Shown: one piece after another, positions 52,736 to 60,506 of the stretch
Layout: the number at the start of each line of letters is the position of its first letter
Numbering within the stretch: the first letter of the stretch is position 1
Origin: an uncultured Gemmatimonadaceae bacterium
GTDB taxonomy: Bacteria > Gemmatimonadota > Gemmatimonadetes > Gemmatimonadales > Gemmatimonadaceae
Direction: 5' to 3'
Assembly: GCA_963790305.1 (NCBI GenBank)
Contig: CAWBOC010000003.1
Span: 96,001-160,000, forward strand
DNA: 64,000 bases
Notes under the pieces: generated by a model
What the model was told of the DNA's origin: nothing
Database searches by the model: none
The model's input: only the letters and a program-made list of their open reading frames with translations
Made by a program: the position numbers and the translations under genes

Positions 52736-52999
52736 CTATCCCGGGAAGCGAGGCCACATGCCACTCTCTCCACGCTCGCGGACGAACAGCGCCTGTCGAC
52801 AGAGCTTGTGCAGTGCCTCGGCGGGGAGCTCCAGCCAATCTGGAGGGATGGGCGCGAGACGCCGTTTCTCCCAGGATGACTCGAACGCCAACCAGCCCTC
52901 AGCGAGCTCCGGCAGGACGGGACGCGTTCCGACTCGCGGATACACCTCCCACACCGCCCACCGTCGGCCCTGCAGATCGGTGAATTCCCTGTGCGCCAC
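52736..52999 (-). CDS. Small hypothetical protein (EFTD..G..W / GWL.FES..EKRRLAP family), copy 1
   Basis: GTG start with GAGGAG RBS; paralog of 53142-53420. Confidence 0.8.
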   Translation of the reverse strand: MAHREFTDLQGRRWAVWEVYPRVGTRPVLPELAEGWLAFESSWEKRRLAPIPPDWLELPAEALHKLCRQALFVRERGESGMWPRFPG

Positions 53000-53053
53000 G
53001 GCCTGGGCTCCTCGTGAGATCACCGAGCGAGGAAAACTGCACAATGGGTGCCT

Positions 53054-53075
53054 ATATGTGATGTAGATCACATTT
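53054..53075. promoter_or_regulatory. CRP/FNR-family binding site
   Basis: ATATGTGATGTAGATCACATTT, 20/22 identical to the CRP consensus AAATGTGATCTAGATCACATTT. Confidence 0.8.
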
Positions 53076-53141
53076 TGGCCGTGAGGGATAGGACGCGATT
53101 CGAGTGATGAGGCGCGTCGCTTGCGGACCCAGCGGCCCCCT

Positions 53142-53420
53142 ATGGCCTATGCGGAGTTCACGGATCGAGTGGGAAAACAGTGGCGAGTGTGGCACACGCG
53201 CCCGCTGTCCGCGGCGCTCACGACCCTTCCGGAGGCCTGGAAGGAGGGCTGGCTCACCTTCGAGTCGGGGGACGAAAAACGACGGCTCGCGCCCGTTCCC
53301 GCGGGATGGGAACACCTGACTCCAGAGCAACTCGAGATGCTATGCCAGGTGGCGGAGCCGACCGCCCTCTCTCCGCGCGCGCACGATCCGCTGCGGCGCG
53401 ACGAGCGGAGCGCGGAATAG
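53142..53420 (+). CDS. Small hypothetical protein (same family), copy 2
   Basis: MAYAEFTDRVGKQWRVW...EGWLTFESGDEKRRLAPVPAGW. Confidence 0.8.
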   Translation: MAYAEFTDRVGKQWRVWHTRPLSAALTTLPEAWKEGWLTFESGDEKRRLAPVPAGWEHLTPEQLEMLCQVAEPTALSPRAHDPLRRDERSAE

Positions 53421-53738
53421 ATGCGCGAGCACGAGAAGCCGGATCGGAGGAACTCTCCGCTCATTCTCATCTTCGAGCACCGCGTCTACTTCCGGGATCA
53501 CGCGGGCGAGCACTGGCGCGTGTACGACATCTTCGTCGCGCCTGACGAGCGCGGCCGTGAGCGGCGCTTCCCCGTGATGCCGCCGGACAAGCGCGCGGTG
53601 CATCGCGAGTTCATCGCGCGGTCGGGAGAGCGACGCGAGTACACGTTCCTCGCTGACTCCCTGCGGGGGATGCCGCTCTTCGTTCACCAGCTTGCTCGCC
53701 AACTGGGCCTCGCGAAGATCGTCCACGAGAAGAAATAG
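53421..53738 (+). CDS. Small hypothetical protein
   Basis: Abuts the upstream stop; FRDHAGEHWRVYD motif. Confidence 0.65.
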   Translation: MREHEKPDRRNSPLILIFEHRVYFRDHAGEHWRVYDIFVAPDERGRERRFPVMPPDKRAVHREFIARSGERREYTFLADSLRGMPLFVHQLARQLGLAKIVHEKK

Positions 53739-54710: not shown

Positions 54711-54851
54711 GTCTAGCCTCCACGGCTGGTTGCCCCTACTCTAGGAGGCGCGCCTGCGACGCCGCAAGCGCCCTCCGACACCTGCGCTGACGCTTCGCTG
54801 ACGCGACCGATGCTTCATGCGCGGCATGACGCCCCACCGGAGCATGGCGCG

Positions 54852-57800
54852 ATGATACGCGTGCGAACGTTGGGTCACAGCGTGATCCAGATCGACTCGA
54901 CGCCGGTCGGTCCTGACGCCGAGATCGTCTTCGCCGCACTCCTGCTGCTGACCGTCGAGCCGGGCAAGCGCCTCGGACGCGGCGAGCTGTTAGGCATCCT
55001 GTGGCCGGAGGCGACGGGATCCCGCGCTGCCCATTGTCTCCGCCAGACGATCTACCGGTTGCGCACGCTCGGCGTGCCGCTGGAGGTGAGTCGCACCCAT
55101 CTCAGCGTCTCGTCGGAGGTAGTGGATTGCGATGTCGATGCGATCCTTCGACATTCGACGGGTGGAGGATGTCGAACGCATTGCTGACGACATCGATGGA
55201 CCGTTTCTCCCTGGCTACTGGCCGAGTTTCTCGGAGCGACTTCAAGAATGGGTGGAGCGTCATCGCGACCTCGTCACGGCGAGCGCGCGACGCGTGTTGG
55301 TCAGCGCGATCGCGACCCGCAAGGCTCGCGCGGAATGGAGTGAGGTCGAGCGCCTGGCGCATCGCTGCCTCGCCATCGATCCATTGAACGAGGACGCCAC
55401 CCTGGCGCTGGCGGAGGCGGCGGCGCTTCACGGGGGGAAGGTCGAAGCGATTGGCATCCTCGATCGATATCTGCACGAGATGGGGCCGACGGCGCGTGAG
55501 CTGCGCCTCCCTGCGATGGCGCTCCGCCGGCGGATCGCCGAGCCCGAGCTGGAGTTCCCGCTCGCTCCGCCGCTCCATGTGCCGTTCGTGGGTCGCAGCG
55601 CCGAGATGGGCATACTGACCGGCGCGCTTCGCAGCGCGCGGGGGGGCGCCGGGAGCGTCCACTTCATTCACGGGGAGCCTGGGATCGGCAAGACCAGACT
55701 CCTCACCGAGTTCTCGCGTGCGGCGTCGCTCGAGGGTGCGCGCATTGCTGCCGCGCTATGTCAGTCCAGCGACGCGCGACGCCCGCTGTCCGCGTTCGTC
55801 GATCTGGTGCCGAGGCTCATGACGATGCCGGGCGCGCTAGGGTGTAGTCCGCAATCGCACAGGTATCTCCGGCGCTTCATCGAACACCATTCCGGTGGCT
55901 CGCCTCCCACGCCGGATGTGCCGAAGCTGCCTTTCTCTATACGAACGTGCGCGGTCGCTCTTCGATCTGTTCGATGCAATCGCTTCCGAAACTGTTCTGG
56001 TCGTGTCGATTGAAGATGTTCAGTGGCTCGACGCGGCATCGTGGGAGATAATCGGTGAAACCGGCTCTTGGCTCCAGACGCGGCGCACTCTCCTCCTGCT
56101 AACATCGCGTGAACGAGAACCACAGGCATCGGAATCACGGGCCTTCTGCAGTCGCAACGTCTCTTCCCTATGGCTCGCACCGTTCGCTCGGCCAGAAAGT
56201 GAGCGTCTCTTCGCAGCAACCCTAGGCGAAGAGACGCAGAAAGTCTCCGCTTCCTTCCGCGATTGGTGCGTCACTATGAGCGGCGGGAATCCTTACTACC
56301 TCTCGGAGCTCGCCCTGCACAGCCCCAAGCGCCGAGGTGAGTTTGTGGTCCCTCCAGTTTGTCGGCTTTAGTGGCAGAAAGGGTAGCGCGTCTTCGACCG
56401 GTATCATGTCGAGTTCTACAGGCGTGTGCGATACTCGGTAGAGATGCCACAGTTGATCGAGTCGAAAGCATGCTCGCGCAACGACGCATTGACCTACTTG
56501 ACGCACTTGATGAGCTTGACGAACACGCACTTATCGCCTGGAACGGGTCCCAGATCGTTAGTCGCCATGACCTCCTTTCCCAAGCTGCGATCGCTCGACT
56601 CTCTCCGCTATCCCGAAAATTGCTGCACCAGCATGCCGCATTGGTCCTCGAAGGCGAAGTATCGTCGGGTAGCACACCCGCCGTGGTTTGGTCTTCTGCT
56701 GAGCACTGGGCGGAGGCCGGTCTCCCTGAGCGAGGGATTGCGCTGGTGTGCAAGTGCGCGCGTCAGGCTATTGAGCTTGGCCAGCCCCAAGAAGCTGTTG
56801 AGCTACTCCGCCGCACAAAGGACCTACCGTTAGCTGATCGGGAACGCCTCAGCGTTCTTACAGAGTTGATTTACGCATACAGGGCGGCTGACCGGTGGCA
56901 GGACGCCACGAGGGAGTTTGCTGACCTTCGCTCCCTGCGTCGTCGTGTTTGTGCAGGAGAATCCGGTGTTCACGACGACATCGAATTGATTGGGATCGAA
57001 TCTCAGTGGCTCGGAGGGTTCAGCCCTGAAACGATCATCGCTCAGTTACTCCAATGTTGTCGGTCAAGTGAGACGACATTCGAGCCACCGAATAGCCGCC
57101 GCCAAACTTTGTCTTATTATCTCAGACAACGTGCGTGATTGCGCAACTGCGATAGAGGCATTCGAACTTGTAAGGCACGATCTGCAAATTGAAGCTATCC
57201 CGACAGTGGAAGGCATCGAGGCCCGTCTGATCTTTGAGACCTCGTTTGGGGATCGTGCGGCAGCGAAGAGCACCGTCGACAGGCTTCTGCAGGCCGATTG
57301 GCAGTCGTCTCGAAGACAGGCCTTTAGCCTAATCCTCGCGGCACACGCATGCGAGCGATTAGGAATGCCGGGGCGCGTGACACAGGTCGCGACCGAAGCA
57401 TATCGACTTGGAGTTGAGTCCTCCTGCGCGACCGCCGCAGCCGCTGCCGCACGAAAACTCGCGTGGGCTTATTTGGACGAGGGAGACCAAGAGCAGGCTG
57501 AGCATTGGTATAAACTTGCCCTGGGTTGGGTACAAAAGGGGCAACTCTCCAGCTTTACCGCAGATTTGCTTGGGCTTCACGCAGAACTACTGATTGGCCG
57601 TGAAGACTACGCCGGCGCCAGCGAAGCGTTAGAGAAGTCGCAAGAGGCTTGGCACCGAACCGTTCACGCCAGGTGGAAACTGAGCGTTCTTTCGGCGCGT
57701 TCCGCGATTTGGCTCGCCACCGGCGCGCGAAGCAGCTGTGAAGTCGCGGCGAGTGAGTACGGAGAGTTACTGAGCCGACTGCATCACGAGGAGGGGAACG

Positions 57801-58033
57801 ACCTATTTGCGGCGCGATACTTCCTGCTACTCGCCGGCATTGGTCGACGCTATGAAGCAGAGGTGGAAATGCGGAAATACCTCGCGTCACGGACTAAATC
57901 GCCCGTTCAGTACAGCCCGACTCTGAAGGCGGTCATACGACAGTTTTCGCCGAGCGGCACGGAGGATCCTGCGACTAGCGGCTACCTACTTTCCGAAGTC
58001 GACCTGACGTCGCCATCACCACCCGTGAGCTGA
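54852..58033 (+). CDS. Transcriptional regulator: wHTH/BTAD + STAND-type NTPase + TPR (about four frameshifts)
   Basis: MIRVRTLG, LLGILWPE..LRQTIYRLR, AIDPLNEDA (BTAD), PFVGR, GEPGIGKTRL (Walker A), IEDVQWLD (Walker B), GGNPYYL, RHDLL, helical repeats. Confidence 0.85.
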
Positions 58034-59327
58034 TGGGCGTCGGTTCCCTCTGTTCTGGCACAAAGAGGAGTGACCAGAGTGGGCTCGCCAATAACCGATC
58101 GCAAATCATGGGATCAAACTGGCGGGCCCGTTGCCGAATGAACTCGGACCGCACCTCCGGCTCGCCTCTGGCTTGACGGTATGGTCGATCCGTTGTCATC
58201 GCGTCTATAGTATCCGCGAACATGATGATTCGAGACTCAAGCGGTATATCCTCTCCCGCCAGACCGTCCGGGTAGCCCGATACCGTCCCAATTCTCGTGA
58301 TGGTGGCGCAACGGAGCGACCAAGTCGCGCAGATTGCTCACGGTCGCCACGAACTCCGCACTCCGAATGGGATGGGTCTGCATGATGGCCCATTCGTCAG
58401 GCGTAAGCTTATCCGGCTTGCTCAGAATCGGCGCGTACATTTCGTGAATCTTGCCGACATCGTGCAGTAGAGCAGCCGTTCCAACGCGCTCGATCCGTCG
58501 TGTCGTAAGCCCGATGGCGCGCGCAATAATCTTCGAGTAGTGCGCGACCCGCATCGAGTGACCGGAGGTGTACGGATCCCGCGCCTCGATTGCCTTAACC
58601 ATCAATTGCAGCAGTTCTTGGTTCACCTGTTCAAGTTTTGCTGTCGTACTGTAAAGCTGTCGGACGCCTAATAGCGGGATCGCTAGGCAGACTGCTCCGA
58701 GCGGGCCAGTGCGAGCAAAAGCCCAGGCAAGCAGCAGAACCACAGGCGCTGCTAGGACGTCGTAGACAAGGGAGTGAAGAGTATTCTTGCGCCAGACACG
58801 CAGAATGCGACTTGCCTTCACTTACTGCGATCGCGCCGCTTACCGACAACGTATTCACAGCAAAGAAGACGACCGTGAGCAGGAGGAACGGAATCCCGAA
58901 TCCCGACGCATCGTACGCAAGCTCTTCTAAGGGCGCTCGCAGAATCGATTCACCACCGAATGCCAAATAGCACAGTGTACCAAGGGCGGTCGCCAAGGAC
59001 ATTTGCGCAACGTTGAAGACGCGCCTTGAGCAAGGGGCGCTGGCTGAGTACCTCGGCGATGACGTACGCGAGGGCCACCGATACGGCGCTCGTCCAGTGG
59101 GGAGCGACGAGAACCAAGCGCCAAGAAAGGAATAAATGCGATCGTCCCTCCCGCGCCCTGCGGAAGGGAGAAGAGCATCATTTGCGCCAGAATTCCCAGC
59201 CCGGATAGCCAAAGCGCGGCGCCGACGTGCGCAAACGACATTCCGGCCGATACGCGTAGAGCGCAACGACCGCGAGCGACTGCCAGCAGACAATTGATAC
59301 CGACGTACTGCTGTATTCTGATCGCAT
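57975..59327 (-). CDS. Membrane-sensor HD-GYP cyclic-dinucleotide phosphodiesterase (frameshifted)
   Basis: Multi-TM N-terminus (FNVAQ, FFAVNT); EARDPYTSGHS, LHDVGK, HP and HHHENWDG; GYPDGL after a one-base correction; DAMTTDRPYR. Confidence 0.9.
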
Positions 59328-59354
59328 AGAAGCTGGGACCCCCGTCCCCGACTG

Positions 59355-59429
59355 CTAGATCCACATCTGCGAGCCACCGGAAAACACAAACTTCATCAAA
59401 CCACTCACGAGCCCGGCCAAGAACTCCAT
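59355..59429 (-). CDS. 24-aa peptide MEFLAGLVSGLMKFVFSGGSQMWI (putative signal peptide/ligand)
   Basis: Manual translation ATG(59429)..TAG(59355); GGAGGTGA RBS 6 nt upstream; stop 27 nt before the HD-GYP start. Confidence 0.75.
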   Translation of the reverse strand: MEFLAGLVSGLMKFVFSGGSQMWI

Positions 59430-59780
59430 GGTGCGTCACCTCCCTCAGGATAAGTCGCACCGGCATCCGCCGAATGCGCTCCAAAAGGTTGGCTCCGCTC
59501 GTACTACCTGGCCTGCCCGCTCAGCTTCGCTCAGCCGAGGAACGGGGGTTTTTGTGGGTTCCTAGTTGGTTGGTCCTTGGGTTCGACTACCTCCGAGAAC
59601 ACCAGCGCTCCCGGGTTCCGCCTCCCCGGGCGACATCGCCCGGCCATCTCACCCGCGCTGCCCTCCCACCACGGACGGCGTGCTACGCAACCTGAAGAAA
59701 GAACACTGCGAAGAAAAAACTGCGAGGATTCACACGCCACGATCGGCGCGCGGAATGGCCTGCCGAGCTACCTCACACGC

Positions 59781-60506
59781 CTAACGGGCGTGCCCGATCC
59801 ACCGATTCGTCGCATCCAGCACCGCCAGCACGCTCGCCGTCTCGGGACTGTCCTTGATCTCGCACGTGCCGCTCAAGAAGGCGCTCTCGCGCCCCCATCG
59901 CGCCGTGAGACCCACGATCACGAACTCCCGGTCGAACGCATCGATGAGCTTGCAGCCATCCAGCGCCAGCTGGCGCGACTCGCCTTCCGCCTGGCCGATG
60001 GCGAGAACCGCCGCACGCGCCGCCAGTTCCGCGCGCGAACGCTCGGTCTCCGCTCCCTCGGCCTCTCCTATGTACGACGCATCACCTTTTCTGAGCGTCA
60101 CCCGGCACGTCACGCCCTTCGTGCGCGAGCGCCGCACCTCCACATCCTCGAAATAGACGCGGCGTTTGTTCGCTGCCTCCTCGAGAATCGCGGCCTCCGC
60201 CGCACGCACTTCGGGCGCCGGCTTCGGCGTCTCGACGGTCGTCGCCACCGAAATCTTTCGATGATCCACGCGCATGCTCAGGTGCGCGATCAGCGCGCTC
60301 TCGATGTTGCGCACCGTCTGCTTCGGCGGCACCTCCGCCGTCGTCAGCACATGGATCTCATCCACCGCACCGTTGTCGCTCGCGACGATGCGCACCGACA
60401 CCACGCCCGGCAGCGTCGCGAGCAACTCCTCCGCGCGCTTGATGGGGAGCACGCTGCCAGCGATTGGGCTGGCAATCGTCGGATGCGGGGCAGGAGTCGC
60501 GGCCAT
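59781..60506 (-). CDS. Conserved hypothetical protein
   Basis: 241-aa ORF: LPGVVSVRIV..EIHVLT..PKQTVRNIESAL..DHRKISVA, C-terminal LAVLDATNR. Confidence 0.85.
   Translation of the reverse strand: MAATPAPHPTIASPIAGSVLPIKRAEELLATLPGVVSVRIVASDNGAVDEIHVLTTAEVPPKQTVRNIESALIAHLSMRVDHRKISVATTVETPKPAPEVRAAEAAILEEAANKRRVYFEDVEVRRSRTKGVTCRVTLRKGDASYIGEAEGAETERSRAELAARAAVLAIGQAEGESRQLALDGCKLIDAFDREFVIVGLTARWGRESAFLSGTCEIKDSPETASVLAVLDATNRWIGHAR

Follow-up and report, generated by a model that had tools for sequence, protein, structure and literature searches.

A hydrophobic micro-gene within a covarying RNA element upstream of MASE9-HD-GYP phosphodiesterase genes in Gemmatimonadota: a candidate peptide partner of the membrane sensor

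Small membrane proteins are known to modulate membrane sensors, as MgrB and SafA do with PhoQ. Variable peptide-receptor cassettes form a second group of systems, exemplified by Bacillus comQXP with its Trp-modified ComX, staphylococcal agr and streptococcal comC/SHP; in a ComX-type system the peptide gene is adjacent to genes for the ComQ prenyltransferase and the ComP kinase. Peptides of the double-glycine class carry a leader ending in GG, GA or GS, with hydrophobic residues at -4 and -7 and an acidic residue at -8/-9. Finally, leader-peptide attenuators and type I toxin mRNAs combine a short ORF in a structured leader with sequestration of the Shine-Dalgarno (SD) sequence and long-range pairing.

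Here we analyse an unannotated micro-gene in a stretch of 64,000 nucleotides from an uncultured Gemmatimonadaceae bacterium, referred to throughout as the window (Table 1). Like MgrB and SafA, its predicted product is shorter than 50 aa, hydrophobic and expected to act on a membrane signalling protein, and its family carries the marks of selection at the protein level. Unlike MgrB and SafA, to which it has no sequence similarity, its target would be the sensor of a c-di-GMP phosphodiesterase (PDE) with a predicted S-component fold, and its gene is cis-linked, hypervariable, co-diverging with the sensor and located inside a conserved RNA element. The locus shares with comQXP, agr and comC/SHP a peptide gene beside a candidate receptor, joint hypervariability between conserved flanks, a lower GC content and a near-terminal Trp; it differs from them in having no adjacent prenyltransferase, AgrB-like or C39 gene, a PDE rather than a kinase as output, a diderm host and a predicted pocket that faces inwards. 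In contrast to attenuators and toxin mRNAs, the peptide is under purifying selection and the leader has no Rfam match.

The downstream gene is a member of the MASE9-HD-GYP family (Pfam PF20972), together with Thermotoga TM1467 and Streptomyces HdgA. MASE9 is an orphan sensor that ranges from Thermotoga and Streptomyces to Gemmatimonadota; we found matches to it in 14 of 41 relatives and, in a sample of 301 genomes of the phylum, in 132. In its accessible text, the paper describing MASE9 names no ligand, proposes binding within the membrane and contains neither the word "peptide" nor "small protein" (bioRxiv 10.1101/2021.11.05.467447), and the accessible text of the HdgA paper does not mention an upstream micro-gene (PMC6205966). 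The open main texts of the literature that we searched describe neither the peptide nor the RNA element nor an S-component fold of MASE9, although supplements, or Figure S5 of the MASE9 preprint, could hold one.

The explanation to which we give about an even chance is that the micro-gene encodes a cognate, membrane-bound peptide partner of MASE9 that tunes c-di-GMP hydrolysis. The original prediction had offered two options, a leader plus mature pheromone cleaved after a Gly-Gly, or a small membrane regulator of the adjacent PDE, and it is the second that we consider the best explanation, with the same evenly balanced confidence. That prediction had recognised neither that the PDE is a MASE9-HD-GYP protein nor that the micro-gene lies inside a conserved RNA element.

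Table 1 Features of the locus; positions refer to the window, except for the MASE9 reference domain, which is given on its own locus.
Feature	Position	Strand	Remarks
BTAD-AAA-TPR (STAND-type) regulator gene	54810..58033	plus	convergent; frameshifted
MASE9-HD-GYP membrane phosphodiesterase gene	57975..59327	minus	frameshifted; Pfam on fragments, intact orthologues MASE9 + HD_5
P1 3' arm, G-rich	59337..59355	minus	directly 3' of the stop, just 5' of the MASE9 start
Unannotated 24-aa micro-gene	59355..59429	minus	ATG at 59429, stop ends at 59355; hydrophobic amphipathic helix, penultimate Trp
Extended Shine-Dalgarno GGAGGTGA	59436..59443	minus	6 nt 5' of the micro-gene ATG
Inner hairpin between box and SD	59454..59479	minus	5/6 pairs with double-sided changes (alignment A5)
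Three GAGCG repeats ending in conserved box GAGCGGAGCCAACC	59487..59532	minus	box at 59500-59487
P1 5' arm, C-rich, of long-range stem	59531..59550	minus	duplex of -33.6 kcal/mol with the 3' arm; covariation
UP, conserved 241-aa protein of no known family	59781..60506	minus	upstream of the leader
MASE9 domain reference	L090:5872-6528		alignment A3

The 24-aa ORF, which had been proposed without a strand, exists on the minus strand. Its SD duplex of -16.3 kcal/mol ranks first among the 4,662 ATG, GTG and TTG positions on both strands of the window, bearing out the earlier claim of a top-class SD match, and motif counts place a CGC after the extended SD in most homologues. In a chance control on the organism's own genome, 272 sites had a comparable SD and start codon; 65 of these lead into ORFs of 14-35 aa, five of which have a Trp within the last three residues, and only the window ORF additionally has a GRAVY above 0.5. 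The hydrophobic and amphipathic character first noticed is reflected in a GRAVY of 1.02 and an amphipathic moment of 0.43; because this moment is accompanied by a best 19-residue hydropathy of 1.22, the peptide as predicted is amphipathic rather than a classic transmembrane helix. Neither a second copy of the peptide in the own genome nor a sigma-70 promoter or terminator at the window locus was found.

A micro-ORF is present at 41 of the 42 places listed as MASE9 loci, 37 times by a strict SD pattern and four more times by eye, the 42nd having only 6 nt of flank. An independent scan, limited to the best 80 of 374 loci, found it in 77; two contigs start inside the micro-ORF and the remaining locus (L131) offers only an IS-like candidate. 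Eight UP-anchored loci, the window's own included, were added and four duplicates removed, giving 121 distinct Gemmatimonadota-type ORFs. Left out were the IS-like L131, the contig-end loci L111, L112, L022, L005 and L054, and the four duplicate ORFs; start codons were set by hand for L077, L096, L144, L150, L024, L027, L030 and L067. One row, L049, comes from a genome flagged as unpublished (G015), and no claim depends on it alone.

These homologues are 14-35 aa long (median 23) and all have a GRAVY above 0, with only six Pro in 2,664 residues and an amphipathic moment of 0.40 compared to 0.28 after shuffling (reached by 0 of 300 shuffles). Trp occurs within the last three residues in 108 of the 121 and is absent there in 13, and some homologues end in Phe or Tyr. 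Relative to the conserved Trp, position -5 is mostly A, G or S and position -4 is D, G or E; the tails are net acidic (140 D/E vs 76 K/R). Pfam and NCBIfam contain no family for the 30 of 34 aligned peptides that were scanned, the other four being shorter than 20 aa and outside the scan.

Over 24 disjoint pairs of equal length, the micro-ORF shows a dN/dS of 0.33 with no in-frame stops; the other two sense frames of the same pairs give 1.10 and 2.08 with 32 and 21 stops, respectively, and one reverse-strand frame gives 0.43 yet contains nine stops. Third positions account for 160 of the 316 changes in the equal-length pairs. Judged from these substitutions, the micro-gene is under purifying selection at the protein level. 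A chance ORF in a structured untranslated region would accommodate the low identity between distant copies (mean 21-29%), but it is refuted by the codon-level selection and the fixed architecture, and with the first-ranked SD and the unique hit in the own-genome control it is hardly credible. The proposed check for codon-level conservation with an invariant GG and Trp therefore gave a divided answer: the dN/dS of 0.33 and the near-terminal Trp (108/121) agree with it, while the GG does not (17/121). The SQMWI tail highlighted at the outset is not a conserved unit, since only the Trp and the residues five and four positions before it are kept.

Cleavage after the Gly-Gly had to be abandoned because the GG is not conserved (those 17 of 121 homologues have it within the last 10 residues), the double-glycine leader pattern occurs in 0 of 121 and C39 peptidases do not follow the cassette. 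C39 peptidase exporters are found in 15 of 41 related genomes, among them all eight same-genus relatives, including five with no detected cassette, and most cassette carriers have none. The absent pattern and this distribution rule out a double-glycine leader peptide of the ComC or bacteriocin type. The organism's own C39 peptidase ABC exporter lies on another contig (C5:456653-457048, L211) and is common to all nine genomes of the genus searched. The statement that no processing enzyme or exporter is visible nearby holds for the window micro-gene, and ComQ- or ComP-like genes are likewise missing at the locus, where the neighbours are UP, MASE9-HD-GYP and BTAD-AAA-TPR. We also rejected a Trp attenuator leader peptide: tandem Trp occurs in only six of 121 homologues, 13 have no terminal Trp and the gene downstream encodes a PDE, not Trp biosynthesis.

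The suggested tie of the micro-gene to the adjacent PDE is supported by its fixed place before MASE9-HD-GYP, their joint movement and their joint loss. Among the loci with enough flank, UP lies upstream in 53 of 53 and the convergent BTAD-AAA-TPR gene is present in 44 of 48. One genome, G020, carries two rearranged copies: in the first (L159, contig C5) the MASE9-HD-GYP gene is inverted and faces UP, with a transposase upstream, and in the second (L160, contig C26) there is no UP nearby; both have kept the leader and the micro-ORF. Its micro-ORFs encode 24 aa ending in Trp-Val and 16 aa ending in Phe-Tyr, with about 370 nt between the shorter one and the MASE9 start. Searches of five same-genus genomes (81-100% complete) detected neither the UP orthologue nor the MASE9 gene nor the RNA element. 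As to other arrangements, the transposase of L159 sits between the BTAD gene and the leader, the stand-alone copy L160 adjoins two-component-type and transporter-like ORFs, and in three genomes (L062, L063 and L068) UP and the leader are separated by an inserted gene of helix-turn-helix plus receiver-like type.

In the window, between 54800 and 63960, the coding sequences of gcvT, a sigma-54 activator, BTAD-AAA-TPR and MASE9-HD-GYP each spread across several frames. Because the neighbouring genes are broken as well and the same-genus orthologue of MASE9-HD-GYP in G003 is unbroken and carries every HD-GYP motif, its HD-GYP part being 85-88% identical, these frameshifts are probably indel errors of assembly or sequencing. 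The MASE9 fragments of the window alone reach only E 0.025, under the cut-off; intact orthologues match Pfam MASE9 and HD_5 above it and carry the HD, HHExxDGxGYP and terminal D/RPY motifs (motifs in G003).

We compared the divergence of the peptide with that of its neighbours. Over 75 loci, peptide identity follows MASE9 identity after removal of UP and HD-GYP (partial r 0.35, 0 of 1000 permutations), with a partial r of 0.03 for UP and -0.01 for HD-GYP; 37 disjoint pairs give partial Spearman coefficients of 0.47 for MASE9 (p 0.004), 0.13 for UP and -0.05 for HD-GYP. The first run, on 10 complete loci only, showed no signal. This co-divergence supports a peptide-MASE9 pairing but is not proof of it, because physical linkage and similar evolutionary rates can produce such a correlation. 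At 38 loci that include the TPR segment, the values are 0.23 for MASE9 and 0.00 for TPR, with a residual of 0.165 for UP (2 of 1000). The latter comparison bears on the idea that the peptide is a ligand of the TPR domain of the BTAD-AAA-TPR regulator, in the manner of SHP/Rgg or RRNPP systems, or of UP. The regulator's presence at 44 of 48 loci speaks for this, as does its TPR part, the most variable piece, which falls within the low-GC stretch; however, with MASE9 controlled for, the divergence of the peptide shows no relation to that of TPR, no gene of this type was seen beside the Bacillota and Actinomycetota loci described below, and in G020 the micro-ORF stays with MASE9, so we regard a TPR or UP ligand as quite improbable.

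We next describe the sensor itself. An AF2 model of MASE9, built from 73 sequences (pLDDT 93.7), was compared with 48,161 chains: the 14 best matches are all ECF S-components (Z 14.5-10.3; next unrelated chain 8.4), headed by RibU with a Z of 14.5 and an rmsd of 2.8 Å over 160 residues of the predicted model. The S-component matches span 154-189 residues and belong to one family, although helical bundles can score high in general. Foldseek returned the same ranking, but with E above 0.001, and no sequence-level support for the fold was found in the PDB. MASE9 is thus predicted to adopt an ECF S-component fold, with a six-helix core and an L1 hairpin. Beside this match to the S-component group (RibU, FolT, NikM/CbiM, BioY and ThiT; Z 10.3-14.5 for the model), the differences are an identity of only 6-13%, extra helices at both ends, a predicted inverted topology and the fusion to HD-GYP, and no transport is implied.

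The accessible text of a study on FolT describes a pocket close to the outer side, with loops L1 and L3 as its cap (PMC4820897). In MASE9, K/R residues per sequence number 1.4 in L1, 3.2 in L3 and 2.6 in L5, with the termini alike and the other loops at 0.0-0.9. By the positive-inside rule, this distribution predicts that the pocket loops face the cytoplasm, a topology inverted with respect to S-components. Judged from the alignment, the near-invariant N105, Q108, N150 and D181 (L090 numbering) probably lie in helices that would line the pocket.

Our preferred reading, that of a membrane-bound partner, would then work as follows. The selected, membrane-seeking peptide would stay with the producing cell, in or on its membrane, and bind the MASE9 domain of the PDE that the neighbouring gene encodes. 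Its terminal Trp may dock into the predicted S-component-type pocket, and docking would switch the breakdown of c-di-GMP by the PDE up or down; the pairing of peptide and sensor may be allele-specific. The 13 of 121 homologues that have no Trp among their last three residues speak against this reading. The RNA element would gate translation of both, with the micro-ORF SD in a stem and the P1 3' arm over the region upstream of MASE9, and UP could possibly read this element. We infer translation of the peptide, direct binding to MASE9 and an effect on the PDE. A co-diverging cis-encoded peptide and a ligand-pocket fold make the MASE9 input directly testable. If true, peptide control of a c-di-GMP PDE, possibly allele-specific, would tie micro-proteins or kin signals to biofilm-type decisions, and would do so in a soil phylum that is abundant but little studied.

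The variability of the locus between strains fits kin signalling better than it fits a private subunit. In close pairs, the peptide and MASE9 vary fast within near-identical flanks (for example, UP 0.98, HD-GYP 0.97 and MASE9 0.68). Compared with G003, the window has a near-identical leader and near-identical codons 1-9, and the C-terminal half of the peptide diverges. Over positions 56000-59500 of the window the GC content drops from ~68% to ~57%, and, of 33 contigs that start nearby, 13 do so no more than 170 nt upstream of the micro-ORF start, where about one is expected, as though co-occurring strains branch there. All four observations speak for an exported, kin-specific signal, whole or cut by a general peptidase, that is sensed by the MASE9 of the same allele with c-di-GMP as output. 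The contig breaks suggest either strain-level alleles or sequencing dropout, and they may reflect loss of coverage at GC-rich inverted repeats. In the loci of the independent scan and in G005, G013 and G016, the leader is a preferred place for metagenome contigs to break, and several have a further break within the HD-GYP part or shortly past it.

Homologues beyond Gemmatimonadota bear on the same question. They resemble signal peptides, with a basic start, a hydrophobic core, a small-residue motif and a short Trp tail, which an exported signal explains better than a membrane-bound partner does; such a peptide would put the Trp on the opposite side of the membrane from a cytoplasmic pocket, and this weakens our preferred reading. 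Within Gemmatimonadota, an AxA-like motif precedes the tail in 52 of 121 peptides, again in keeping with export, but K/R occurs within the first five residues in only 13 of 121, so most of these peptides, by their sequence, have no Sec n-region. Together with the lack of a dedicated protease or exporter at the locus, the poor fit of GG and C39 and the predicted cytoplasmic loops of the MASE9 pocket, this makes an exported signal rather doubtful.

In Natranaerobius (Bacillota), an unannotated 28-aa ORF lies ahead of MASE9-HD-GYP, accompanied by a UP homologue (E 2e-17), repeats and a P1-like stem, and in Nonomuraea (Actinomycetota) the corresponding ORF has 34 aa and ends in Trp-Thr. The Bacillota locus (L163 3990-4497) continues with a DUF5317 gene, a family for which we found no mention in the literature searched, and the Actinomycetota locus (L164 from ~4146) has another membrane gene of HD type, an arrangement like that of hdgA-hdgB. 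In a Chloroflexota-centred sample (phylum of G322), a hydrophobic Trp-ended sORF is present at 11 of 21 MASE9 loci compared to 0 of 21 on the opposite strand. In an Acidobacteriota-centred sample (phylum of G323), where MASE9 heads long fusions, the counts are 2 of 24 and 1 of 24, which is background. From these counts, MASE9 can function without a cis-encoded peptide, which speaks against our preferred reading, and the peptide accompanies a subset of MASE9 proteins, mainly the short MASE9-HD-GYP forms. A self-recognition system spanning several phyla, in which a repurposed, inverted S-component receptor would sense a Trp-tipped, allele-specific peptide and turn kin identity into a c-di-GMP level, the peptide being made from a discrete, end-paired mini-mRNA of ~245 nt gated by a new, UP-read RNA motif, is a tentative idea that we consider improbable, but not remote.

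The micro-gene is enclosed by an RNA element with covarying stems. Two alignments, with 24 and 35 rows, have 84% of their cells paired and show double-sided changes at 19 of 38 pairs and at 13 of 19 pairs. These counts exceed all 500 shuffles and all slid registers, although the helices were picked on those same two alignments and relatedness inflates the shuffle test. Cognate P1 arms pair at -33.9 kcal/mol vs -25.3 kcal/mol for swapped arms, with the cognate arm first in 16 of 47 (0 of 20,000 permutations). Because G-U mismatches in P1 exceed their DNA-mirror A-C mismatches (81 vs 40, p 2e-4; 186 vs 154 in swapped controls), the data favour P1 acting as a sense-strand RNA. In the first alignment the SD lies within a stem, and a 7-bp helix connects the box with the nucleotides that follow the SD; this helix is invariant and therefore shows no covariation. 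Folding the whole window element by minimum free energy was not better than shuffles (z -0.25), so the support for the RNA comes from covariation and not from stability.

The box-like 9-mer is present in 103 of 108 leaders, compared to 0.006 per 100 nt of genome. Searched with a covariance model, 21 of 41 genomes contain the element, each in one copy and invariably at the cassette; the two hits in G016 are on split contigs. Rfam gave 0 matches at the gathering threshold in 14 loci, with only a chance hit (E 2.7) for the window stretch, and the motif does not appear in the main text of three ncRNA surveys, whose supplements could list it (PMC11109978, PMC8632094 and PMC6429828). The leader is a candidate new cis-regulatory RNA absent from Rfam. 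The spacings of the repeats, considered with DNA sites of the convergent SARP-like regulator in mind, peak at 10 (58) and 22 (32), and also at 15 (25) and 5 (14); the repeats lie inside the RNA stem. At L165, a consensus sigma-70 promoter (TTGACA, 18 nt, TG-extended TATAAT) is located ~90-60 nt upstream of the sORF start, just before the box, with one repeat copy in the promoter spacer and another in a hairpin loop past the sORF stop.

This architecture raises the possibility that the micro-gene is a regulatory uORF only, whose translation or stalling, for example at a Trp codon, would melt P1 and license MASE9-HD-GYP, the peptide itself having no target. P1 closes directly past the stop, where in 98 of 121 homologues a G-run follows at a median distance of 10 nt, independent of ORF length; its 3' arm lies over the sequence preceding the MASE9 start, where another SD is mostly lacking, and the SD of the micro-ORF lies within predicted stems. 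A uORF alone would leave the purifying selection on amino acids and the amphipathicity of the helix unexplained, however, and it is at odds with the rarity of WW (6/121), the Phe or Tyr ends of some peptides, downstream genes that are not for Trp biosynthesis, a distance of ~370 nt between sORF and MASE9 start in L157, the persistence of the peptide in Chloroflexota-centred loci that have no repeat leader, and the fact that TRAP was not found in the own genome. We consider the peptide-less version unlikely; translational coupling may well exist in addition to a peptide function.

Transcript data touch on the extent of this RNA. For the G161 organism, two studies provide RNA contigs that reach from UP to HD-GYP, with the parts not ranked. 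In a freshwater metatranscriptome, the only contig on a 2.7-kb stretch is 248 nt long and matches the P1-closed element (L162 6037-6281) with no loose ends, a weak hint of a discrete RNA of ~245 nt from one contig of one study at depth 4. Such an RNA would also suit a type I toxin-like gene, in which a membrane-damaging peptide is silenced through 5'-3' pairing of its mRNA and adjacency to the PDE is coincidental. The small hydrophobic peptide, the long-range stem and the sequestered SD resemble features of toxin mRNAs. The gene is nevertheless single-copy, always at MASE9-HD-GYP and co-diverging with MASE9, and its tails are net acidic and match no family, which makes a toxin very improbable.

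In a spot check of five genomes, UP was present only in the genome whose leader has repeats, a weak pointer to UP as a candidate RNA-binding protein that might read them. Two other conceivable readers of the repeats, CsrA and TRAP, were rejected since neither gene was found in the own genome (94% complete). UP belongs to no Pfam or NCBIfam family, and its Atlas matches are unnamed Gemmatimonadota clusters. Residues 16-90, the only part searched by fold, match a generic alpha/beta fold with Z up to 8.7. A comparison of the C-terminus with the LeuA allosteric domain yielded no PDB or Pfam profile match, and the single-sequence model is unreliable past residue 183. A paralogue of the UP C-terminal domain, 32% identical, lies in the own genome at C1:147680-148063 and is present in most relatives. 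Elsewhere in the window, three adjacent ORFs of ~100-110 aa each lie at 52736-53071 (minus), 53121-53420 (plus) and 53421-53738 (plus), and the first two are divergent look-alikes with common Trp-rich motifs.
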